Positions 231 through 15,061 of a stretch of DNA of 16,538 bases are shown here, in pieces (the first letter of the stretch is position 1; each line of letters begins with the position of its first letter). The notes under the pieces were generated by a model. It ran no database searches and was not told the DNA's origin. It saw only the letters and a list, made by a program, of their open reading frames with translations. The DNA is taken from NCBI GenBank assembly GCA_030612265.1, contig JAUWOE010000069.1, positions 1-16,538 of the forward strand, read 5' to 3'. The DNA comes from Promethearchaeum sp. (lineage in GTDB: Archaea > Asgardarchaeota > Lokiarchaeia > Sigyniarchaeales > Promethearchaeaceae). Both the position numbers and the translations under genes were made by a program.

Positions 231-677
231 GTGAAAAAAATGGCGAGAAAATCTGCTAGCAATTTAAAAAAAGGTAACTATTATATTTACGAGGGCGAAC
301 CTTACTTAGTTTTATCCAACGACCATAGTAAGTCGGGGAAACACGGTCATGCCAAGAGCCGGATAGGCTGTGTGGGTTTATTTACTAAGAAAAAAAAATC
401 ATTGACCATGACCGCCGATACAAGCGTAGAAGTTCCCGAAATTGAAAAAAAAACCGGACAACTTCTAGATATTAATGAAAATGATCAAATAGTGCATATA
501 ATGGACTTGGAAACTTATGAATCCATTGAAGTAATGTATCCCTTTGAGGACGATGAATTAAACCTAAAAAAACTTACCAAATTAATCGGCGATCATGAAC
601 TACAAGGAGAATGCACAATAGATTTCTGGACGGTAATGGAAAAATCGTTTGTAACAAGAGTAATTCTTCCGAAATAG
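231..677 (+). CDS. eif5a: Translation initiation factor 5A (aIF5A)
   Basis: 148-aa ORF with the hypusine loop SKSGKHGHAKSRI (modified Lys would be K37, codon 339..341) and the length expected for a/eIF5A. The start could be GTG 231 or ATG 240. A TATA-like TTTATA lies at 200..205. Confidence 0.9.
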   Translation: MKKMARKSASNLKKGNYYIYEGEPYLVLSNDHSKSGKHGHAKSRIGCVGLFTKKKKSLTMTADTSVEVPEIEKKTGQLLDINENDQIVHIMDLETYESIEVMYPFEDDELNLKKLTKLIGDHELQGECTIDFWTVMEKSFVTRVILPK

Positions 678-6089: not shown

Positions 6090-7850
6090 CTATTCTTTAA
6101 TTTCAAAGCTATCAAAATCTATAAAATTTTCTTGGATAAAATTCGGCAAAATATTTCCTATTGGTTTTTTGGAGTTATTAAATGCATCTTTATCAACATA
6201 TTTTTGACAAATTTCAGAAATTAATTTTTCTCCACGAGGATTTGGTAATTCCCTCTTTCTAATTTTGGTAAAAATTGGATAATTTAATGCAGCGCCCATA
6301 ATCAAAGCATTACCTGTAGGTAATGTGCTAATTATATCGATTGAGCCCCTTGTTAAAGCTTCAGATGTTTGCTTTATATGTTTTAAATCATAGGGATTCG
6401 TTATTCTCATTACAATTTGAGTGTTACACTGAGATAAAGCAGTTGTACTGAGTCTGACAGGTCTTTGAGAAACCAAGACTAATTGTGCAAAAAATTTTCT
6501 TCCTTCACGTGCAATAGTTTCAAAGATATTCTTTGTTATTGCATTTTTACCTCCGTATTCAGGTAAAAAATTATGTGCTTCTTCAAGAAAAATGATAAAA
6601 GGGGAAATTTTCCCACTTCTGCGGTAATAGAATAATTTTGAAGTTATATAATGAAGTAAAATCTGTTTTTTTCTCATAGAAATTATTGAAGATAAATCCA
6701 AAATTGAAAGTTCTGCCACTTTTATTAATTCATAAATAGACGGAGATTCACTCTTGCCGAAAATGTTTAAATTATTTAAATCCGCTAACCAACCGATTAA
6801 AGTTGATTGCAATTTTGAATTTATATCGGGATTTTCTGATAATTCAGTAATGATGTCATTAATATCATAACCCTTTAAAACGTCATCATCTGTTGAAGTT
6901 TTACTCTTTTTGAATTTCTTTCTACAATTTTTTATAGATTTTCGAAGTTCTCGTAATTGTGGAACAGAAATACCTGGTTGATAATGTTTAAAATCATATT
7001 CTGTCAAATCTGGCACTCCAATTTGTATAAATAATCCATTAAAAATTGTAATTTTATTTTGTATTCTGTTTAAACTTGAAATTTTTGATTGTTCTAACTT
7101 TTCTTGGGTATTATCTTCTATTTTTTCCTTTAAAAAGCGATATTCACCATGAATATCTATAAGAAATAGAGCGGGTGTTCCTAGATCTTTTGGACGAGAT
7201 AAAAGTTCTTCAAATAAAACTGATATTAGATAACTTTTTCCCGCTCCCGATTGAGCCAATATTGCTACATGTTTATTAAAAAGACGATTTATATTCAAAG
7301 TGACATCTTGATTATAATTGCTTAAATTTCCAATATTTAGTCCTTTATCATCTAGACCTAAGAAATTTCTAAGATAATCTCCTTTTAGAATATATACCTC
7401 ATTACCTGGATTGACTGGAAATCCTACTCTTTGGATCTTCTTAAAAATTGAAGGATCAATTTTTTCAGAAAATTTATTTTTAGAGCGAACTGTTCCTAAC
7501 AGATGTACGTCGACAATGTTACATTCCCATTGATCACTCGGGAAGAAATTTTGCATATTAACATTTGCAAGATTAAAGTTTTTCACTGTTTGAACATTGG
7601 AGAAATATTGATTATTCGTTCTGATTTGCTCAATTATACCAATCACAAAACCTTCATGTGATTCTACTAAACAATATTGGCCCTGTTGTATAAAAAGTGA
7701 GTTTTTTGATGTGAATGCAGACTGATTATTAGTAAGGATGAATGAATATTCAAATATATTAGGAGATAAGTTATTAATTCCTGAGATAACAATTCCAATT
7801 GATTCGATTTGCTGTTTTGATTTTGAATCAAGAACTTTTTGAAGTGTCAT
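6090..7850 (-). CDS. HerA/FtsK-superfamily (DUF87-type) ATPase with N-terminal HAS-barrel-like domain
   Basis: 586-aa ORF with an N-terminal barrel-like segment (IGIVISG...GQYCLVESHEGFVIGIIEQI). It has Walker A AQSGAGKSY (codons at 7233..7250), a DIHGEY motif, Walker B FIIFLEEAHNFLP and the HerA-typical REGRKFFAQLVLVSQRPVRLSTTALSQCNTQIVMRITNPYD. A TATA-like ATTTTAAAAA on the minus strand at 7875..7884 lies about 30 nt upstream of the ATG. Confidence 0.8.
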   Translation of the reverse strand: MTLQKVLDSKSKQQIESIGIVISGINNLSPNIFEYSFILTNNQSAFTSKNSLFIQQGQYCLVESHEGFVIGIIEQIRTNNQYFSNVQTVKNFNLANVNMQNFFPSDQWECNIVDVHLLGTVRSKNKFSEKIDPSIFKKIQRVGFPVNPGNEVYILKGDYLRNFLGLDDKGLNIGNLSNYNQDVTLNINRLFNKHVAILAQSGAGKSYLISVLFEELLSRPKDLGTPALFLIDIHGEYRFLKEKIEDNTQEKLEQSKISSLNRIQNKITIFNGLFIQIGVPDLTEYDFKHYQPGISVPQLRELRKSIKNCRKKFKKSKTSTDDDVLKGYDINDIITELSENPDINSKLQSTLIGWLADLNNLNIFGKSESPSIYELIKVAELSILDLSSIISMRKKQILLHYITSKLFYYRRSGKISPFIIFLEEAHNFLPEYGGKNAITKNIFETIAREGRKFFAQLVLVSQRPVRLSTTALSQCNTQIVMRITNPYDLKHIKQTSEALTRGSIDIISTLPTGNALIMGAALNYPIFTKIRKRELPNPRGEKLISEICQKYVDKDAFNNSKKPIGNILPNFIQENFIDFDSFEIKE

Positions 7851-7960: not shown

Positions 7961-7984
7961 AAATGTTTCCATATGGAAACATTT
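7961..7984. promoter_or_regulatory. Perfect 24-bp palindrome (candidate operator) overlapping the BRE/TATA region of the 8023 operon
   Basis: AAATGTTTCCAT|ATGGAAACATTT is its own reverse complement with no mismatch. Its 3' end overlaps a TATA-like TTTATATG at 7982..7989, about 35-40 nt upstream of ATG 8023. It lies in the 172-nt divergent intergenic region shared with the HerA-like gene. Confidence 0.5.
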
Positions 7985-8022
7985 ATATGTTTTTAATCTA
8001 TTTTTTTTTTGATTAAGAAAAT

Positions 8023-9393
8023 ATGACTCCCAAAGATCATAAAAAAAATAGGGAAATTCCCATAAGTTTACGGGGTATCGAATCAATTCTCCGTGTTCTA
8101 AACAATGAACTTAAGGACCCTTCTAGTATTAGACAAATTAGTGAAGTTACTGGTCTTTCAATGCGGGTAGCTAAAAATATTTTAATGCAATTAGAAAATC
8201 TTAAGCAAGTAGAACGAGTTTTAGAAAAAGGGCAAATACTACCAAAATGGGGTTTAACTAGGCTAGGAAAGGAAAATGCTAAAGCAATTGAAAAAAGTTC
8301 CAATGGTTTGAATAAAAAACCGAGTAATAGATTATCAGAACTTTTAATTAGTAATATACAAATAGCAAAAAATATAGAGGAACAAAATACAAAAATTGGA
8401 GCAACCCATCGAAATTTCATAAATTTATTAGATAAATTAAAATTAAATTTGAGTAAATCTATGGGTATTTGTTATAACTTGGAACAACCAATTTTTGCTG
8501 AACGGTTGGGAGATATTATACGCAAATTAAAATCCATCAAAACCAATTTTTCGAGTTTTCGTGTAAATCCCTTATCTTTTTATGATTTACATAAAAAAGG
8601 GACTAAAAAGAAAATTTCCGCTCGAAAAAAGAAAGATTTTCTTTCAGAGATTTTATTTATCAATCAGATCTTGCTTAATCAGCTTAATTTTATCTCAGAG
8701 TTGGAATTAGAGGTAAGTAAAAACCTCGAGCAAGAAAACTATAGATTATTTAGTGAAATTTATAATCAAATAACAGACCAAATCAGGATTTTAGATTTTT
8801 TACTCCAAAAAAGAACCAGTGTTGATGATGGTATTCACATACTTGCAGAAGATGAATTAAATTTACTTCAAAAGAATCAAGTTGGGTTAAGTTTGCTTAA
8901 AAAATTCTTACCTCCATTAATCCAAGATAATAGAAAAGAAGAAATACTGAAAGAAAGCCTAATATCACTTATTTCTGATTTATTGGGAGTGCACTCAAAA
9001 AATAATAGTAAGCCATATAATATCCCACTTGTTTCTTTTTATGAATTAGCCAAAGACAAGTGTAACTATACAGGCTTTACAGTTGAGAATTTAGAAAATG
9101 TGTTAAACCAACTAGCTGAACAAGGCTTAATATCCGGGATAATTGAAATAAAAGATGATGAAAATCATATTTTTAAAATTGTCCAGTTAAAACCGTATGA
9201 TATTTCAGTTGACGAAATAAAACTTCTTCGATTAGCAATTCAATTAAAATCTTTTTCAATGGCTGAAGTTATGGAAAATTTAAGTTGGAATCAATCAAAA
9301 GTAGAAAAAATACTTCAAACTATGACAAATAACGGATTACTCCGGCATTCTCAATCATATCTACAAGGAGATAAATGGTATATATTAATGTAA
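8023..9393 (+). CDS. Multi-winged-helix/coiled-coil protein: N-terminal MarR/TrmB-like wHTH, long helical middle, C-terminal tandem WH resembling ESCRT-II EAP30 (Vps22/Vps36)
   Basis: 456-aa ORF. The N-terminal wHTH is SIRQISEVTGLSMRVAKNILMQLENLKQVERV. Residues ~100-330 are helical and heptad-like. The C-terminal residues 334-455 (nt 9022..9390) form two WH units: FTVENLENVLNQLAEQGLISGIIEIKDDENHIFKIVQLKP and FSMAEVMENLSWNQSKVEKILQTMTNNGLLRHSQSYLQGDKWYIL. I am confident it is a gene and only moderately to weakly confident of the EAP30 likeness. Confidence 0.6.
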   Translation: MTPKDHKKNREIPISLRGIESILRVLNNELKDPSSIRQISEVTGLSMRVAKNILMQLENLKQVERVLEKGQILPKWGLTRLGKENAKAIEKSSNGLNKKPSNRLSELLISNIQIAKNIEEQNTKIGATHRNFINLLDKLKLNLSKSMGICYNLEQPIFAERLGDIIRKLKSIKTNFSSFRVNPLSFYDLHKKGTKKKISARKKKDFLSEILFINQILLNQLNFISELELEVSKNLEQENYRLFSEIYNQITDQIRILDFLLQKRTSVDDGIHILAEDELNLLQKNQVGLSLLKKFLPPLIQDNRKEEILKESLISLISDLLGVHSKNNSKPYNIPLVSFYELAKDKCNYTGFTVENLENVLNQLAEQGLISGIIEIKDDENHIFKIVQLKPYDISVDEIKLLRLAIQLKSFSMAEVMENLSWNQSKVEKILQTMTNNGLLRHSQSYLQGDKWYILM

Positions 9394-9417: not shown

Positions 9418-10314
9418 ATGTTAAGAAAGAAAAACGGCAGTAATGGTAAAGATCGATTTCCATCAATTACTTCATGGCCCCAGGATGATTCAAAAGATCA
9501 AAATTCTCAATTAATTTATTGTTTTCCCAAACAAAACGATAATATTAAGAAAGCAAAATTCTTTAATGTTAAAGAACATGAACGCGCGTTATATCTAAAA
9601 CACGGTGAATTAATTGCAGAACTTGGTGGCGGAACGTATGAATTAGAGAAAAAGTCCCGCGCTAAGGGTACAAAAATTATTTGGTTTGACACTTCAATGC
9701 ATCAAATTTTATGGGGTATCCCAGAGATAAATGGCATTCCAAGTCAAGACGGGTTTATATTTGGAATGTTTGGTGATCTTAAATTACATATTTACAATGT
9801 CAGCATTTTCTATAAATACGTTATTGGCGGAAGTAAAGAATGGACGATACAACAATTGAAAGATTGGATAATAAGCCTTTTTTATGTTATTCTCCGTGAT
9901 ATTTTTAAGGAATTTGATATTTCAGAAATTTTCCAAGAATCTCGAGAAATAGTTATGAATAAAGTGATTTCCAAAGTTTGTGATGAAATGAATCTTTATG
10001 GCTTGGAATTGGACGCGTTTAATATTTTAGGTTTTAAAACACCAGAAAATGCAAAAGAAGTTCTTAATTCCAAACAAGAACAAGCGTATCAATTCAAGAA
10101 ATGGCTTGAAAATGAAAAAAAACGAGATATCGAAGATCGAGAAATCATTCAAGATCGAATAAAATCTTTAAAGAGTCGTTTGCAAGGGCTTCAAAACGAT
10201 TTACTGGAAAGTAAAATCACCAGGGAAGAATATGATTACAAGTGCCAAACAATCAAAGAATTCATAGAAGAAGCAAATTCAGAACTGGAACCGGATAGAA
10301 GGTATGAAAAATAA
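9418..10314 (+). CDS. SPFH/band-7 superfamily protein of the YdjI (Band_7_1, COG4260-like) type with C-terminal coiled coil and no Zn ribbon
   Basis: 298-aa ORF. SITSWPQDD..LIYCFPKQNDNIKKAKFFNVKEHERALYLKHGELIAELGGGTYELE matches the N-terminal pattern of this family (I..W....Y.FP....I..ga.l.V.E.q.Av....G.....lgpG.Y.L). This is followed by WGIP..DG..FGMFGDLKLHIYN and GLELDAFNILGFKTPE. Residues ~215-298 are coiled coil. It starts 24 nt after the upstream gene. Confidence 0.6.
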   Translation: MLRKKNGSNGKDRFPSITSWPQDDSKDQNSQLIYCFPKQNDNIKKAKFFNVKEHERALYLKHGELIAELGGGTYELEKKSRAKGTKIIWFDTSMHQILWGIPEINGIPSQDGFIFGMFGDLKLHIYNVSIFYKYVIGGSKEWTIQQLKDWIISLFYVILRDIFKEFDISEIFQESREIVMNKVISKVCDEMNLYGLELDAFNILGFKTPENAKEVLNSKQEQAYQFKKWLENEKKRDIEDREIIQDRIKSLKSRLQGLQNDLLESKITREEYDYKCQTIKEFIEEANSELEPDRRYEK

Positions 10315-10334: not shown

Positions 10335-13300
10335 ATGAGAAATGGAAATAAAAAAAGGACACATAGTCAAATTACATTAATTATATTAGGAATTTGTATC
10401 ATTCTTATTTCAAGCATTGAAACCCATGCATTGTATAATGATTCTGCGCAAAATCAGGAGAAAATTTTTGAAGTAAATGCAGCAACATTACTTATTTCAC
10501 ATGAACCAATTCGGATAGACGGAAATAATGATTTAGAAGCTTTTTGCGCTGGTAATGGGACTGATGGATTATCATGGGGAACCGCTTTTAAAATTGAAAA
10601 TTATTCAATTACTTCAGGTGAGCATTCGGGAATTTTTATCCAAAATACCGATAAATTTCTAATAATCAATAATTGTTCAATCAAAAATTTTGATGAAGAG
10701 AAGGTTACTGATAACGGGACTTACTACGAAAAAGGGATTGAAATTCAAAATTGTTCGAATGTTAAAATCACTAATTGTTCATTGATAGACAACATATATG
10801 GGATCTATTTAAACTCATCAACCAATAATACAATAATTCAAAATAATTGTTCTTTAAATGATTATGGATATACATTGGTGAATTCAGAAAATAACACCCT
10901 ATTCAATAATACTGCTTCAAATAATGAAGGTGATGGATTTAGATTAGTTGGAAGTATCCACAATAATATCTCAACAAATATTGCAAATTTTAATAATTGG
11001 AATGGTATTACTCTTGATCAGTATTATTCAGATATTAGTGCTGTGAGTAGTCAAGAAAATTTAATAGTAAACAATATAATTGAAAATAATCAAGAAAATG
11101 GTATTAGTTTCTCATATTCTGATAGTAACTCAGTACTTAATAACTGTATTTCGAATAATCGAGGTTCTGGAATTACATTAAGATTTTCTTCTGATAACTA
11201 CTTATCTTTTAATTTAATTAATAATAATAATAACGCAGGAATAGAACTTTTCGATGATTGTAACTGGAATTTGATTTTAAATAATAATATTAGTGACAAT
11301 TCCAATGGAATATATATCATTAATTCTGGTCAAAATACTATTGGAGAAAACATCATAACTAATCATACTAGTGGTTATGGTATTTTAATTCTATATGAGG
11401 ATGAATATCAATCAGAACAGAATATTTATGGAAATATTTTTGAAAATAATTCACAAGATATATCATATGAGCAAATTACTTATTACTCTTATTCACCACC
11501 ACCTTATTATGTTTATGTGATTATAGCAGTTTTTATTATTGGAATCGTAGTAATACTCATGATAAATCGAAAAAAAATAAAAAAACGATGGAAAAAATTA
11601 ATTTCTGATCGCGAAATAAGAAAAAGCGAACAGAAAATTGAACGAGCGAAAAAAAATAAGGAAAGTAGTTTAAAATTATCAAAAATATCTGTAGAAAATA
11701 TTGATCGGGAAGATTCTAAATTAAGTTTGCTAAGAATTTATAAAATATTTAAGGTTATTGGATGGCTATGTGTATTATCTATAATGTTTCTATTTATAGG
11801 ATTTACCTTCGGAACAGGAGCTCCATATTTCCTTATCGATATTCCTATTTTGATAATTTTATGGATTATTAATCGAAAAAAAATCTCATATCAATGGAAT
11901 AAATTCATTGCTGAGCGCGAAAACGAACTGAGAATTAATAGAGATGAAAGGACTAATAAACACGATTCAAAAACTTCAAAAATTTTAATAAAAAATATGA
12001 ATCGGAAAAAATCGAAATCAGGAAAACAATTTATTTTTAAATTACTAAAAGTACTTTCTTGGCTTTTTGTATTATTCTGGATGTTTCTATTTATAGTTTT
12101 TAGCTTCGTAACAGGAGATCAATATTTCCTTATCGATATTCCTATTGTGATCATTATTTGGTTTTTTTATAGAAAAAAGACAAAATTTAATTATCATAAA
12201 AGGAAAACCAATCATTTAATTAAAATTAGCAAAAGTAAAACTAAGAAAGCTATAGATTATGCAAAAATGCATAAATATAAAAGATCCAGGAATTATTGGT
12301 TAAGTTCGGAACGAAATTATCGAAGAGCTCTAAGACTAGTACCGGATTTTCATAAAATTGATTTTCTTGAGAAAAAAATAATTTCCATTAAACAGAATAT
12401 ATTAGCTACCTATATTTCTGAAGGTATTCTTCTAAGTAAAATTGCCTGGGCTAAATTCCAAGAAAATCACTTTTCCCAAGCAAAAAAACAATATTCTAAG
12501 AGTATTTCGGCAATCGAATTAGTTTTAAAAAGTATTGAAACAGAGAATGTTTTCAGTGAAGAAGAGGAGTTTCCAATTACCGCTTCCTTAATTTTTGAAA
12601 TTTTGCAATTCTTAGAGAAAAACCTAGATCAAATTAAAATTAAAGAAAATAATAAAAAGAAATCAAAGGTTTTTATAAAATCCAGTGATGTACAAAAGAT
12701 AAATGAGAAAATTGTTAAATCAATAAAAGAAATGAATGAATCTTTATGGATTTATTGCCAATCACTTGATTCTCATGAAGATTTACTCGATTTAGATGTA
12801 TTATCGAAAATATTGGAGAGTAAATTAACAAAATCAGAAAAAATATTGAACTCGGTTCAAGAACAAATGCAATATTTATTAAATTACATGCAAACTTCAA
12901 CCAATAGATATGAGAGAAATGGTGTTGAAACAAAATCGATTGCAATGAATATAAACCGCACTTTAGAACAAGAAAGAATTGAAAATAAACATCTGAAAAT
13001 TATTCGAGAATATGAATATATCGGGGGTAAAATTCGCTTGAAAGTTGGCATGGTGAATCATTCAGATAATGTTTTAACAAATTTAGCACTAAGATTCGAT
13101 TTACCTGAATCTTTAAAGTGGATTATCCATGAACCGAATTTAAAACGCAGAGGTGATACTATTCATATTGCAAAACTGGGTGGGAATGAAAAAATCGCAA
13201 TATCGCTTTATTTAGAACCAATAAATTGTTTAGAAAGTACGATTAATGCTACTTTAACCTATTTTGACAATAAAGATCGTCCACAAGCAATTATAATGGC

Positions 13301-13865
13301 ACCGAAAAAAGTTTCGATATCATGTCCAATTTTCTTTACAAGAGAAGAAGCCAACTTAGCCCGAGTAAAAAAAATACAATTGGAGCTTAAATATGAAGAC
13401 CATAAAATTTTCCCGCTTGTTAAATCGAATAAATCTGAATTGATTTTTAACAAAATTCTCGCTTCTATTGGAAAACATGATGTCAAATTAGTAAGCAAAG
13501 AGTATTCCCTTGATAATAATAAGGGCGAAGCATATTTCTATGGGATAACTAAAGTTAAGAAGGAAAAAATGATAATTTATTTATTATTGGATTCAAACCA
13601 TCAAATTATTGAAATTTCCGTAAATGGTGATGATCAAGAACCGATTACAGGGCTTCTTGCTGAACTTGAAAGCGAAATTCGTGATAAATTGCTAGTTCAT
13701 AATATTATCGAAGATTCCGATAAATTCCATGACATAAATACATCTATTCTTTTAGGGAATTGTCCTTTTTGTAATGGTCCTATTTCACAAACTAGTATAT
13801 CACTTTTCAAGAAAGGCGAAACTATAACATGCAAATATTGTGATACTATTATAACACCCTATTAA
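10335..13865 (+). CDS. Large (1176 aa) multi-domain membrane protein: signal peptide, PbH1/NosD-like right-handed beta-helix ectodomain, TM, duplicated TM-hairpin modules, cytoplasmic helical + beta-sandwich + alpha/beta region, C-terminal zinc ribbon
   Basis: AGGAG lies about 9 nt upstream of the ATG. The N-terminus is KKRTHSQITLIILGICIILISSIETHA. Residues ~55-375 hold repeated rungs of the type NCSIKNF / IEIQNCSNVKITNCSLIDNIYGIYLNSSTNNTIIQNNCS / NNEGDGFRLVGSIHNNIS / NQENGISFSYSDSNSVLNNCISNNRGSGITL. The first TM is YVYVIIAVFIIGIVVILMI followed by NRKK. Two TM hairpins follow. The C-terminus is CPFC-x18-CKYC (13761..13841). Confidence 0.8.
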   Translation: MRNGNKKRTHSQITLIILGICIILISSIETHALYNDSAQNQEKIFEVNAATLLISHEPIRIDGNNDLEAFCAGNGTDGLSWGTAFKIENYSITSGEHSGIFIQNTDKFLIINNCSIKNFDEEKVTDNGTYYEKGIEIQNCSNVKITNCSLIDNIYGIYLNSSTNNTIIQNNCSLNDYGYTLVNSENNTLFNNTASNNEGDGFRLVGSIHNNISTNIANFNNWNGITLDQYYSDISAVSSQENLIVNNIIENNQENGISFSYSDSNSVLNNCISNNRGSGITLRFSSDNYLSFNLINNNNNAGIELFDDCNWNLILNNNISDNSNGIYIINSGQNTIGENIITNHTSGYGILILYEDEYQSEQNIYGNIFENNSQDISYEQITYYSYSPPPYYVYVIIAVFIIGIVVILMINRKKIKKRWKKLISDREIRKSEQKIERAKKNKESSLKLSKISVENIDREDSKLSLLRIYKIFKVIGWLCVLSIMFLFIGFTFGTGAPYFLIDIPILIILWIINRKKISYQWNKFIAERENELRINRDERTNKHDSKTSKILIKNMNRKKSKSGKQFIFKLLKVLSWLFVLFWMFLFIVFSFVTGDQYFLIDIPIVIIIWFFYRKKTKFNYHKRKTNHLIKISKSKTKKAIDYAKMHKYKRSRNYWLSSERNYRRALRLVPDFHKIDFLEKKIISIKQNILATYISEGILLSKIAWAKFQENHFSQAKKQYSKSISAIELVLKSIETENVFSEEEEFPITASLIFEILQFLEKNLDQIKIKENNKKKSKVFIKSSDVQKINEKIVKSIKEMNESLWIYCQSLDSHEDLLDLDVLSKILESKLTKSEKILNSVQEQMQYLLNYMQTSTNRYERNGVETKSIAMNINRTLEQERIENKHLKIIREYEYIGGKIRLKVGMVNHSDNVLTNLALRFDLPESLKWIIHEPNLKRRGDTIHIAKLGGNEKIAISLYLEPINCLESTINATLTYFDNKDRPQAIIMAPKKVSISCPIFFTREEANLARVKKIQLELKYEDHKIFPLVKSNKSELIFNKILASIGKHDVKLVSKEYSLDNNKGEAYFYGITKVKKEKMIIYLLLDSNHQIIEISVNGDDQEPITGLLAELESEIRDKLLVHNIIEDSDKFHDINTSILLGNCPFCNGPISQTSISLFKKGETITCKYCDTIITPY
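11562..12167 (+). repeat. Intragenic tandem duplication (102 aa + 100 aa units) encoding a basic juxtamembrane linker plus TM hairpin
   Basis: Unit 1 is 11562..11867 (INRKKIKKRWKKLISDRE...KIFKVIGWLCVLSIMFLFIGFTFGTGAPYFLIDIPILIILWI). Unit 2 is 11868..12167 (INRKKISYQWNKFIAERE...KLLKVLSWLFVLFWMFLFIVFSFVTGDQYFLIDIPIVIIIWFF). They share an identical 25-nt core ATATTTCCTTATCGATATTCCTATT at 11825..11849 and 12122..12146. Confidence 0.85.
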
Positions 13866-13930: not shown

Positions 13931-14340
13931 TTAAATAGTGGGTGGAATTAAAGCACACTTTGATTTCTTCATTCCTTTAGATAAGAAATAATCATATCGA
14001 CTTCTATGTTTTTGATAGAATTTTTTTCCGTAGAGGACAACACCTTCACCTATCGCATCGATGGCTGTAAGGGCATAACTTTCAAACACTCTTCAAATTC
14101 TTCTGTTTTATAGCAAAATAAATCTAAAGATAAAAGAGGGGCTGATTTTATAACCCAATCACTTCTCTCAATAAAACTCCCTTTAAAATCACCTACTAAT
14201 AATATATCATAATCACTGTATCGTGTGGCTTCATCTCGCCCTTGGGAACCAAATAAAATTACCATATTTAAATTAATTTCACTTTTTACCTGATTAATCA
14301 TGGATTGAAAAAGGGTTTGCCATTTATTCAAAGATTTCAT
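13931..14340 (-). pseudogene. MNT-type (DNA pol beta-like) nucleotidyltransferase, split by a frameshift
   Basis: The 96-aa ORF 14050..14340 carries the NTase motif ILFGSQGRDEATRYSDYDILLV and is preceded by GGAGG. It ends prematurely at ...KTEEFEECLKVMPLQPSMR*. A second frame (13931..14092, below the ORF-track length cutoff) reads RVFESYALTAIDAIGEGVVLYGKKFYQKHRSRYDYFLSKGMKKSKCALIPPTI*, the typical C-terminal helix of this family. This implies a 1-nt indel between about 14074 and 14092. Confidence 0.6.
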
Positions 14341-14429
14341 TCTTTTTTTGCCTCCATTTCGTTATTAACAAAATCAATTATTAATTTTGCTAATGCAAAA
14401 TAGTATTTTTTTAGTAATTTAAAGTATCT

Positions 14430-15061
14430 CTATAATAATAAAACAAAATTTTTCAATAGTTTTATCCCATCATTAAACGATGAGGGATCATCCGGATATT
14501 CTGGATGAAATTGAACACCATAAATTTGCCGAGATTTATACTTAATGATCTGAATTTTACAAGAAGGGCTGGAGGCATATATTTTGAAAATATCTGTAAA
14601 TCTTGGAACGAATTCGATTTCTTCTAAGTGGCTTTCGAACACATGGATTTGATCTTTAGGAAATAATTCAAATTTTGGATTTATATTTAGAATTAAAGAT
14701 TTTTCATTTTCAATATTAATAATTGTATTATTAATCGGTTTGATCTCGAAACCATATGCACACGCGATTAATTGTAGACCATAAATATACCTAAAATCGG
14801 TTTCTCATATTTTCTTATGAAATTCATTTCTGTTTGATATTTTTCAATGATTTTTATATCTGATAACATGTGATAAGAACCGGTTAAAAGTAAACCATCC
14901 ATTTTTTTCAAAATATCGATTGTTTCAGGTTTTTCTAATTGTGAATAATGGATATGTTTCCAAATTAATTTATCTTCACAACTCTCAAAGTATTTGTTAA
15001 ATCTTCGTTCAAATTTATCAATCTCTTTATCAAAATTATTAATAATACCTAGAATTTTCAT
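14430..15061 (-). pseudogene. Class I glutamine amidotransferase (GATase1, COG0518/GuaA-N-like), frameshifted at the catalytic Cys codon
   Basis: ORF 14768..15061 ends ...KPILGIFMVYN*. Shifting one frame at about 14782..14787 gives YGLQLIACAYGFEIKPINN...DQIHVFESHLEEIEF, which runs without stops into ORF 14430..14642 (..IYGVQFHPEY, the His/Glu of the triad). The expected nucleophile elbow is GIC-YGLQ. The observed GGTATATTTATGGTCTACAA is what a single G deletion from ...ATA TGT TAT GGT CTA CAA would leave. Confidence 0.65.

Follow-up and report, generated by a model that had tools for sequence, protein, structure and literature searches.

A winged-helix pair resembling that of the ESCRT-II subunits Vps22 and Vps36, fused to an additional N-terminal winged helix-turn-helix (wHTH) and encoded beside an SPFH gene, raises the question of whether a 456-residue protein of Promethearchaeum sp. 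belongs to the ESCRT machinery, to transcriptional regulation, or to both. The window that we analyzed is a stretch of 16,538 nucleotides (contig JAUWOE010000069.1), and its gene set includes aIF5A, NAD kinase, PIN, FEN1, CDC48, HerA-like, SPFH, and beta-helix membrane protein genes. The orthologue of the 456-residue protein in Promethearchaeum syntrophicum is DSAG12_01531 (QEE15704.1), at 85% identity. Its gene is the first of a conserved operon (Table 1), with the SPFH gene second, starting 24 nt past the stop of the first, and a multi-pass membrane protein gene third in this genome. The window contains none of the genes for Vps25, Vps28, Vps4, or ESCRT-III, and neither do the related family loci. 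In addition, no Snf7 or PspA domain was detected among the window ORFs scanned, and no tRNA or Rfam element was found within the window. A minus-strand ORF at 8037–8420 was treated as spurious because it is contained in the conserved plus-strand gene. DSAG12_01531 and QEE15704 go unmentioned in the literature searched, of which the Makarova 2024 supplement, available in part, may hold an asCOG number for the family.

Table 1. Features of the 456-residue protein gene, its promoter, and its operon, in window coordinates
Feature	Position	Strand	Details
Perfect 12+12 palindrome, candidate operator	7961..7984	.	Right half at BRE position
TATA-box-like TTTATATG	7982..7989	+	~34 nt 5' of ATG
wHTH / helical / ESCRT-II-like tandem-WH protein gene	8023..9393	+	456 aa
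N-terminal wHTH	8068..8262	+	aa 16-80; AF2 secondary structure
Helical region	8263..9018	+	aa 81-332; AF2 model
WH-A, first winged helix of ESCRT-II-like pair	9019..9192	+	aa 333-390; AF2, Foldseek, hhalign, HMM
WH-B, second winged helix	9193..9390	+	aa 391-456; invariant W422; C-terminal SYxxGxxWY motif common to Vps22
SPFH/Band-7 protein gene	9418..10314	+	298 aa; C-terminal coiled coil, no transmembrane segment
Membrane protein gene	10335..13865	+	1176 aa; signal/TM 8-34, NosD-type beta-helix ectodomain
Alpha/beta + Zn-ribbon module, C-terminal part of 1176-aa membrane protein	13347..13850	+	aa ~1005-1172

The AlphaFold2 (AF2) model of the full-length protein (pLDDT 81.7) contains every part that the first-pass annotation had read from the sequence, namely, a wHTH at 8071–8262, a helical region of ~230 residues, and two consecutive C-terminal winged helices at 9022–9390 (aa 334–456). 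A model of aa 270–456 had a pLDDT of 79.9, with 83–95 in the winged-helix part. The N-terminal wHTH is built from helices 16–28, 36–43, and 47–59 and strands 63–66 and 75–78. No other domain is as well conserved across the family (column conservation averages 0.68 here versus 0.39–0.56 in other parts), and its recognition helix carries the nearly invariant motif S-[ML]-R-V-x-K-N. Moreover, it is basic, with a net charge of +4, compared with −4 for WH-A and 0 for WH-B. Pfam returned weak generic wHTH matches for this domain (FaeA, HTH_45, and DUF7342), its profile found nothing significant in the PDB (MarR at E = 0.11), and the Foldseek matches to the wHTH proteins AspA and AF1382 came from the full-length query only and not from the C-terminal model. 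No named regulator family of the MarR/TrmB-like kind matched the 456-residue protein at threshold level. The long helices of the helical region span residues 118–152, 156–177, 200–236, and 240–268, and shorter ones follow up to the WH pair, with helices at 276–321 immediately N-terminal to WH-A. This helical stalk is likely a dimerization or coiled-coil element. WH-A comprises strand 333–335, helices 336–346 and 354–366, and strands 372–377 and 383–388, whereas WH-B comprises helices 396–408, 413–420, and 424–436 and strands 440–445 and 449–454. The two are arranged in the mutual geometry seen in Vps22/36.

Residues 333–456 are homologous to ESCRT-II Vps22/Vps36, and this homology is solid. 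Aligned by hhalign, the family and the canonical Asgard Vps22 of ESCRT clusters matched at 99.1% (E = 1.5e-18, 25% identity over 120 columns), and the canonical Asgard Vps22 in turn matched human SNF8 at 6.3e-33. An HMM of the canonical Asgard Vps22 detected the 456-residue protein at aa 332–453 with 68.9 bits and an E-value of 2.7e-17 (computed with Z set to 1e6); because of this score, the match of the WH pair is, at the level of sequence, not a matter of chance. When the family profile was searched against 1.84 billion proteins, EAP30 proteins made up 60 of the 72 remote matches (those of at least 200 aa outside the family itself), the best at 5.8e-26, followed by TrmB with eight. Structure comparison pointed the same way, with Vps22 and Vps36 as the best Foldseek matches of both the full-length and the C-terminal model. 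Against the PDB, the C-terminal model matched SNF8 at 7.8e-7 and 8.8e-7, yeast Vps22 at 9e-5, and Vps36 at 2.8e-4 to 1.5e-3, whereas matches of the MarR type stood at 1e-2 or weaker; Vps25 was missing among its best 50 PDB matches. The structural matches to Vps22/SNF8 and Vps36 had a TM of ~0.5 and an rmsd of 4.0–4.7 over ~150 columns. The ESCRT-II resemblance proposed in the first-pass annotation was thereby supported, and the matches were not of a generic MarR, PadR, ScpB, or PCI type devoid of any EAP30 preference.

The first-pass annotation had also aligned both winged helices to human SNF8/EAP30 by eye. HMMER placed the family profile on SNF8 138–221 (DVSQDDLIRAIKKLKALG...LKWETERARQVLEHLLKEGL) in the identical register, and therefore the SNF8 segments used in that alignment agree with the PDB chain; the family-invariant W422 falls on the SNF8 tryptophan. 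In a PDB hmmsearch with the family profile, SNF8 was matched at 4.5e-3. Pfam EAP30 (PF04157; gathering threshold 26.8 bits) gave no match in the 456-residue protein even at E ≤ 10, and in the divergent family members P0009–P0012, it was the top Pfam match at 18.1–24.0 bits, below threshold, over profile positions 90–215 of 219.

The 456-residue protein is nevertheless no canonical ESCRT-II subunit, since it is subthreshold for Pfam EAP30, lies outside any ESCRT cluster, and carries an extra wHTH and extra helices. With eukaryotic Vps22/SNF8/EAP30 and Vps36 (PF04157; 3cuq, 2zme, and 1u5t), it shares the tandem WH pair, its register, the WH-B tryptophan, and a strand of the SYxxGxxWY type. However, it is twice as large, has long helical hairpins besides the N-terminal wHTH, and is encoded without Vps25 or ESCRT-III partner genes behind a promoter with a dedicated palindromic operator. 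Homology to the N-terminal helical domain of Vps22 was not detectable when canonical Vps22 was compared by hhalign: the alignment to the ~240-aa canonical protein ends at the WH pair and leaves the helical region unaligned. The full-length Foldseek alignment covers 232–240 SNF8 columns, and the family profile aligns to Asgard EAP30 proteins of 340–390 aa over the helical region (profile positions ~105–320). Canonical Asgard Vps22 (asCOG cog.002769, "EAP30/Vps22 family protein") has a homologous WH pair and comes from the same phylum. As anticipated, it is about half the size, as in Baldrarchaeia P0144 (246 aa) and Odinarchaeia P0059 (299 aa), and is encoded in ubiquitin–UEV–Vps28–Vps25–Vps4–Snf7 clusters, whereas the 456-residue family is encoded in an SPFH operon. 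In a rough NJ tree, the members of the family group together in a separate clade. The wHTH-bearing proteins come from Lokiarchaeia-type genomes in every case in which the taxon is known, and the family therefore looks like a derived fusion. Of the two descriptions first offered, a non-canonical ESCRT-II-like paralogue or an ancestral-type WH adaptor, the non-canonical ESCRT-II relationship is supported, and "ancestral" gains no support.

The neighboring SPFH gene, likewise proposed at the outset, encodes a protein that passes the Pfam thresholds for Band_7_1 (37.5 bits) and Band_7 (30.9 bits). YdjI of B. subtilis is a Band_7_1 member as well, and we term the gene YdjI-type. An SPFH gene lies directly 3' of the family gene in the window, in 16 of 16 distinct genome loci having downstream DNA, and in all nine metagenome loci with enough downstream sequence. 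The pairing extends to the remote EAP30-like proteins P0046, P0051, P0061, and P0068, which are wHTH-less or differently extended, with gaps of 11–14 nt to the SPFH gene in three of the four. No EAP30–SPFH fusion was found among the Pfam-scanned remote matches or among the homologues that a search from the SPFH protein yielded (only 12, all close), so physical binding of the 456-residue protein to SPFH would be argued from gene order alone. The SPFH protein is devoid of hydrophobic segments, and the 1176-residue protein encoded directly after it has at least four TM segments (among them ~387–415, 468–514, and 565–620) and a cytoplasmic tail that closes with a Zn ribbon; it is a probable membrane partner. 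Relatives other than the closer ones (L008, L019, and L001) do not keep this third gene after SPFH.

About half of the family loci also carry genes for E1, E2, Ubl, and JAB proteins next to the pair. A UFC1-like E2 (Pfam UFC1 24.8 bits, cut-off 25), a ThiF-type E1, a small Ubl, and a JAB protease adjoin family genes in L002/L003, L012, L015, and L020; parts of the set occur in L011, L021, and L022 and also beside a wHTH-less relative in L007. We suspect the small Ubl to be UFM1-like, a lead only that drew no support from a Pfam or PDB profile search. In the Ubl-linked loci, a 360-residue Zn-ribbon protein is encoded after the SPFH gene and before the E1 gene, and the Zn-ribbon module of the 1176-residue membrane protein matches it by hhalign at 91.8% (E = 7.2e-7, 155 columns), with shallow alignments (Neff 1.5). 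The window, the MK-D1 locus, and L001/L004/L009 are without the Ubl cluster.

Upstream of the 456-residue protein gene, the halves AAATGTTTCCAT and ATGGAAACATTT form a perfect palindrome, a candidate operator with the half-site CCATATGG. It is the sole copy in the window, and none of 200 shuffles matched with up to two mismatches. In 16 genome loci, the operator consensus TGtTnCCATATGGnAACA precedes the family gene while its flanks diverge; the palindrome is conserved among loci whose proteins share only 36–47% identity. The sequence ttTaTATAT is kept directly 3' of it in all family loci, and from the general layout of archaeal promoters, we infer that TTTATATG is the TATA box. A metagenome scan by the palindrome motif alone returned 23 loci, and a family protein is encoded just 3' in 20 of the 21 that were assessable. 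No other full copy occurs in ~336 kb of fetched loci, where further CCATATGG sites stand without the flanks, and the genes of the wHTH-less relatives have no such palindrome upstream. A palindrome in the gene's own promoter, as in autoregulators, is conserved in, and specific to, the family loci. Across 35 operator–gene pairs, recognition-helix residues showed no clean covariation with the operator flanks. A hairpin resembling a terminator was also scored for the palindrome, but we rejected this weak reading because the only upstream gene is divergent and because the register of the palindrome relative to the putative TATA box is fixed across loci.

The fusion of a Vps22 relative with a wHTH, the SPFH gene that follows it, and the palindromic promoter suggest that a membrane-sorting module has been reused in a self-regulated SPFH system. 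On balance, and with some reserve, we favor the view that the protein is a member of the EAP30 superfamily rebuilt in three parts, serving both as a dimeric, self-regulating DNA binder and as an ESCRT-II-like module on its SPFH partner. The wHTH of the dimer would bind at TGTTTCCATATGGAAACA, the palindrome that extends into the BRE position beside the putative TATA box, and would autoregulate the operon, more likely by repression, while the acidic-to-neutral tandem WH pair would be a protein-binding module, as in ESCRT-II, that holds on to the SPFH protein of the operon or to the assembly of that protein at the membrane. The WH pair may, in related genomes, cooperate with the neighboring ubiquitin-like conjugation system. 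More speculatively, SPFH assemblies at the membrane might titrate the protein off DNA, in which case expression of the operon would track the state of the scaffold. We offer only as a tentative possibility the stronger proposal that the ESCRT-II-type tandem WH is the domain with which a DNA-binding autoregulator, hard-wired to SPFH, senses its partner and that the EAP30-like and SPFH proteins, with or without E1/E2/Ubl/JAB, constitute a second ESCRT-II-related system of Asgard archaea.

Alternatively, the protein may be a pure adaptor, an ESCRT-II-like subunit that acts in the cytosol as the scaffold of a membrane complex with SPFH. The wHTH would then be a protein-interaction domain, and the palindrome would be bound by a different regulator. 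Such an adaptor may connect SPFH assemblies with either Vps25/ESCRT-III or cargo that carries a Ubl. The winged helices of ESCRT-II are established to bind protein and not DNA (Hatano 2022), other Asgard lineages have the EAP30-like and SPFH pair with neither wHTH nor palindrome, and the Ubl-linked loci also speak for it. However, the palindrome is restricted to the wHTH-bearing family and found essentially nowhere else, the wHTH is precisely the basic and best-conserved domain with a nearly invariant recognition helix, and Vps25, Vps4, and ESCRT-III genes are missing from the window; we therefore consider a pure adaptor rather unlikely.

A bona fide ESCRT-II subunit, replacing or partnering Vps22 as a Vps36-like second stalk subunit in ubiquitin-dependent sorting, appears improbable from the sequences compared. 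The homologous tandem WH would suit such a subunit, as would the Ubl system linked to the pair in related loci, and a vacancy can be argued because only a single Vps22/36-like gene is reported for each Asgard genome, and full-length Vps36 for none (Hatano 2022). Yet, in the loci seen, the family gene is never beside Vps25, Vps28, Vps4, or Snf7, as canonical Vps22 genes are, and MK-D1 already has VPS22, VPS25, and an OB-fold "VPS36" assigned (bioRxiv 10.1101/2025.11.01.685982); the subthreshold EAP30 scores and the confinement to Lokiarchaeia-type genomes also speak against it.

Even less probable is a UFL1/DDRGK1-like multi-WH scaffold acting as an E3-like adaptor for the neighboring UFC1-like E2 and Ubl system. 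Several family genes do adjoin such conjugation genes, and Foldseek matched the UFL1–DDRGK1 chimera 8b9x at 8.7e-3, but this match lies four orders of magnitude below those to Vps22, the 456-residue protein has no Pfam UFL1 or DDRGK match, and the window, the MK-D1 locus, and L001/L004/L009 lack the Ubl cluster. Finally, that the protein is just another transcription factor of the MarR/TrmB type, its three winged helices being generic and its ESCRT-II likeness fold-level convergence, is largely refuted and scarcely credible: although TrmB is its top Pfam match (24.7 bits, cut-off 25.6, on WH-B at aa 389–444) with HTH_IclR second, a MarR protein is the best PDB sequence match (6e-4), and a conserved operator is present, these Pfam and PDB matches are subthreshold and cover one winged helix each, whereas both winged helices jointly match Vps22 by profile and structure and EAP30 proteins dominate the remote relatives.

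The favored reading, a self-regulating DNA binder with an ESCRT-II-like module, can be set beside known systems. Autoregulated dimeric wHTH regulators found in archaea and bacteria (MarR, TrmB, and PadR) likewise combine an N-terminal wHTH, long helices, and a perfect palindrome overlapping their own core promoter; here, however, the "effector" is a WH pair of the ESCRT-II type and not a ligand-binding domain, and a threshold-level family match is lacking. In B. subtilis, the soluble SPFH protein YdjI depends on YdjG/H in the membrane and recruits PspA, a homologue of ESCRT-III (PMC8581546). Both PspA–YdjGHI and the present locus encode a TM-less SPFH protein with one or more membrane proteins and a member of an ESCRT-machinery family, but here the partner is ESCRT-II-like rather than ESCRT-III-like, the operon contains no PspA/Snf7 gene, and the system is archaeal. 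According to Makarova et al. (2024; PMC10936438), the Meth_adaptin ESCRT systems of Methanobacteriales include an SPFH component, a contextual link between ESCRT and SPFH. In both cases, ESCRT-type WH or adaptor proteins are linked by context to SPFH with a coiled coil or zinc ribbon; Meth_adaptin loci have Vps4 and ESCRT-III as their defining genes and also encode adaptin-appendage proteins, whereas the present locus has neither Vps4 nor ESCRT-III and has an EAP30-type WH pair. The same source describes Asgard diversity mainly inside ESCRT clusters.

The locus represents a further lineage of the EAP30 superfamily outside the ESCRT cluster, invariably coupled to SPFH and, in Lokiarchaeia, fused to a wHTH with its own conserved operator, and the family bears on the question of how ESCRT-II arose from winged-helix proteins. 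It extends to ESCRT-II-like proteins an ancient connection between SPFH and ESCRT, represented by PspA–YdjI in bacteria and by Meth_adaptin. In the cultured MK-D1, it offers a testable system (gene DSAG12_01531) in which the 24-bp DNA site, the partner gene, and the domain are all defined. If the stronger proposal is true, the archaea in culture most closely related to eukaryotes would possess a direct switch between the state of a membrane scaffold and transcription, in logic analogous to PspA/PspF; the EAP30-like and SPFH system would be a previously unrecognized one, distinct from the classical ubiquitin–ESCRT cluster; and the EAP30 fold would have served a function tied to transcription in archaea.

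The window has a G+C content of ~30%, is archaeal, and carries genes for aIF5A, NAD kinase, a PIN nuclease, FEN1, CDC48, a HerA-like ATPase, the target protein, an SPFH protein, and a beta-helix membrane protein. The target protein shares 85% identity with DSAG12_01531 (QEE15704.1, annotated "hypothetical protein") from Promethearchaeum syntrophicum MK-D1, for which no mention was found in the literature searched by locus tag and accession. In a word-indexed search, 5.8 billion proteins yielded only 13 relatives; those that carry a source name are all labeled Promethearchaeota or Helarchaeota. Only the closest relatives, MK-D1 and related locus L019, keep the HerA-like gene in its divergent position, so its product probably lies outside the system. 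Further along the window, two neighboring ORFs in different frames jointly resemble one class-I glutamine amidotransferase (…LLLTGSYHM… and …YGVQFHPEY…); the split is due to a frameshift, pseudogene, or assembly error.

Coordinates of features in the window, the target protein (aa), and related loci (L numbers)
Feature	Location	Strand	Description
HerA-like DUF87 ATPase	6090-7850	minus	586 aa; divergent from target ORF, common 172-bp intergenic region
Candidate operator	7961-7984		perfect 12+12 palindrome, AAATGTTTCCAT then ATGGAAACATTT; fifty nt 5' of ATG
Target ORF	8023-9393	+	456 aa
wHTH	aa 16-80		AlphaFold2 model
Long helices	aa 118-152, 156-177, 200-236, 240-268		AlphaFold2 model
Shorter helices	aa 276-321		AlphaFold2 model
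Two complete winged helices	aa 333-388 and 396-454		AlphaFold2 model
Multi-pass membrane protein (third gene)	10335-13865	+	1176 aa: signal/TM, NosD-type beta-helix ectodomain, several TM segments
Split glutamine amidotransferase-like ORFs	14050-14642	minus
Second operator copies	L001 7900-7935; L004 7895-7925; L009 7915-7940
Only operator and TATA match not followed by the family gene	L038 (metagenome contig SDBV01077755.1) 3110-3390
SPFH fusion, gene after P0068	L006 2504-3850
Ubl-set loci	L002 7143-10316; L003 2735-8794; L012 3468-7474; L015 792-4826; L020 2947-7092; L007 2752-5735 and 8711-9562		ThiF-type E1 (~275 aa), Prok-JAB protease, small Ubl (~89 aa), UFC1-like E2, 360-aa Zn-ribbon protein

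AlphaFold2, supplied with a 13-sequence alignment, gave a confident full-length model (pLDDT 81.7, pTM 0.66), and a separate model of aa 270-456 concurs with it (pLDDT 83-95 in the winged-helix part). Both models bear out the first-pass annotation, which had read 9022-9390 (aa 334-456) as a tandem winged-helix (WH) pair, and the register of its by-eye SNF8 alignment was obtained independently by HMMER against human SNF8. Conservation in the family peaks in the N-terminal wHTH (0.68 versus 0.39-0.56 elsewhere), which is basic (charge +4) and whose recognition helix, S-[ML]-R-V-x-K-N, hardly varies; the WH pair ranges from acidic to neutral. The archaeal DNA-binding wHTH proteins AspA and AF1382 are Foldseek matches only if the query includes this N-terminal part.

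Because five independent lines, drawn from sequence and structure, favor an ESCRT-II-like over a generic WH pair, the EAP30/ESCRT-II preference anticipated on first reading holds. The target protein's own best Pfam match is TrmB, sub-threshold and on the second winged helix (WH-B); EAP30 (PF04157) is the top Pfam match of four divergent family members, scoring 18-24 bits (cut-off 26.8) with both winged helices covered (90-215 of the 219 profile positions). When 1.84 billion representatives were searched in full by HMMER using the family profile, 127 matches came back, and those outside the family were Asgard proteins aligned at profile positions ~320-450, with looked-up source names from Loki-, Hel-, Jord-, Odin-, and Baldrarchaeia. 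Pfam EAP30 proteins make up 60 of the 72 remote matches of at least 200 aa (best 5.8e-26) and TrmB matches eight; some bear the annotation "EAP30/Vps36 family vacuolar-sorting protein." Against canonical 240-300-aa Asgard Vps22, which was originally found through the family profile, hhalign gave 99.1% for the family (E 1.5e-18, 120 columns, aa 331-454), and the canonical HMM scored 68.9 bits on the target protein. The Vps22 identity of these sequences is independent of the family profile, being given by Pfam, the SNF8 match, and ESCRT-cluster context (P0059 and P0144); their alignment matched human SNF8 (6.3e-33) and Vps36 (2e-12). In the PDB, the family profile matched a MarR protein at 6e-4, with an alignment straddling WH-A and WH-B, as well as SNF8 (4.5e-3) and yeast Vps22 (0.12), each spanning both winged helices. 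SNF8 chains were the only Foldseek PDB matches of the full-length model below 1e-3. They also headed the matches of the C-terminal model (7.8e-7 and 8.8e-7; TM 0.51, rmsd 4.7, ~155 columns), followed by yeast Vps22 (9e-5) and Vps36 chains (2.8e-4 to 1.5e-3). TFIIIC tauB was the sole outsider among its top eight, MarR and MecI matches were weaker (at least 1e-2) and covered one winged helix each, and Vps25 was absent from its top 50 PDB matches. A rough NJ tree of WH pairs, too weak regarding monophyly of the SPFH-linked proteins, places the family as a distinct clade beside other SPFH-linked Helarchaeota proteins.

An SPFH/Band-7 gene directly follows the family gene at every locus with downstream DNA (after a 24-nt gap in the window). 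This holds for MK-D1, for another 14 genome loci whose proteins are as little as 36% identical, and for 9 of 9 metagenome loci with sufficient sequence. The upstream genes vary by locus. Since the same pairing is seen for the remote EAP30-like genes P0046 (333 aa) and P0061 (Helarchaeota, 356 aa), both over the Pfam EAP30 threshold, and for Helarchaeota P0051 (386 aa) and P0068 (570 aa), the partnership predates fusion to the wHTH. The SPFH neighbor of P0068 is fused to a PLD-like (PLDc_2) domain. The window's SPFH protein contains no hydrophobic segment, as is likewise the case for B. subtilis YdjI, which depends on the membrane proteins YdjG/H and brings in the ESCRT-III homologue PspA (PMC8581546). 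An ESCRT-SPFH link has been described in Methanobacteriales (Makarova et al., PMC10936438).

The candidate operator continues directly into TTTATATG, is single-copy in the window, and was never produced by shuffled controls. Its consensus, TGtTnCCATATGGnAACAttTaTATAT, lies upstream of the family gene in 16 of 16 genome loci, where the intergenic surroundings have fully diverged, and the motif is absent at wHTH-less SPFH-linked relatives. A metagenome scan with the DNA motif alone found 23 loci; in 20 of the 21 whose downstream sequence could be assessed, a family protein begins 55-110 nt after it. Metagenome locus L038 has the only operator and TATA match that no family gene follows; its downstream sequence differs, and this locus may be rearranged or represent a second regulon member. 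In three loci, a second operator copy, degenerate in sequence (e.g., TAATCCCATAAGGAAACA), precedes the main palindrome by ~23 bp; their clade has GATC half-sites, not GTTC/GTTT.

The simplest model fitting all the evidence, which we hold with slightly more than even confidence, is a dimeric autoregulator whose WH pair binds the SPFH protein encoded alongside it, or the membrane assembly of that protein. The wHTH of the dimer would bind its own promoter, and the WH pair would engage the SPFH partner in the protein-binding role that such pairs have in ESCRT-II. The model builds on homology, gene pairing, and an operator that are shown, and infers DNA binding, SPFH binding, and the sign of regulation. 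Repression is suggested because the right half-site of the operator overlaps the BRE position. Release from DNA could, speculatively, proceed via sequestration at SPFH assemblies, following PspA/PspF logic. A pure adaptor, with a separate factor on the operator, is a less probable reading that still carries appreciable weight.

The target protein does not qualify as a canonical ESCRT-II subunit. In Odinarchaeia (P0059, 299 aa) and Baldrarchaeia (P0144, 246 aa), the canonical Vps22 genes lie amid ubiquitin, RING, UEV/Vps23, Vps28, Vps25, Vps4, and Snf7 genes, whereas none of these was found in the window or any related locus examined. As VPS22, VPS25, and an OB-fold "VPS36" are already assigned in MK-D1 (preprint, bioRxiv 10.1101/2025.11.01.685982), DSAG12_01531 is an additional paralogue, in agreement with the initial suggestion of a noncanonical ESCRT-II-like paralogue; a single Vps22/36-like gene per Asgard genome was reported by Hatano et al. 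(Hatano 2022). A true ESCRT-II stalk subunit is improbable. Outside the window, the 601-aa Promethearchaeota EAP30 protein P0057/P0139 has a weak, sub-threshold PF11605 (Vps36 GLUE-domain) match at aa 246-290 (E 1.8e-4, 22 bits), possibly a Vps36-like architecture in an archaeon.

The 1176-aa membrane protein has a cytoplasmic region of ~560 aa with a Zn ribbon at its end. In the clade at 36-38% identity, the SPFH gene is followed by genes for a soluble 360-aa Zn-ribbon protein and then a ThiF-type E1, a JAB protease, a small Ubl, and a UFC1-like E2. The last ~170 aa of the membrane protein are akin to the 360-aa protein (hhalign 91.8%, E 7e-7, from shallow alignments), which suggests that the loci have a third component in common. 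This ubiquitin-like conjugation set adjoins the EAP30-like/SPFH pair in many related loci. The small Ubl has a conserved C-terminal end (IIDRG[IV]VG) and gave no Pfam or PDB sequence match, and the E2 scores 24.8 bits against the Pfam UFC1 cut-off of 25; locus L003 fuses the two in a single 270-aa protein and also encodes two PCI-domain proteins. A survey found UFC1 and UFM1 to be exclusive to eukaryotes (PMC10183829). That the target protein is a UFL1/DDRGK1-like scaffold serving the neighboring E2 seems very improbable.

A generic MarR/TrmB regulator is essentially excluded because of the remote EAP30 matches, the Foldseek ranking of SNF8, Vps22, and Vps36, and the hhalign and Vps22 HMM results. 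Asgard EAP30 WH pairs also stand at the C terminus of large proteins with CarboxypepD_reg, TPR, UQ_con, or UEV domains (P0092, P0104, P0119, P0122, P0126, P0134, P0136, and P0137 (760-790 aa), with others in the alignment of remote matches), a distribution that shows wide shuffling of the ESCRT-II module in Asgard archaea. The novelty of the target family is its architecture and gene context within the EAP30 superfamily, not another kind of protein.
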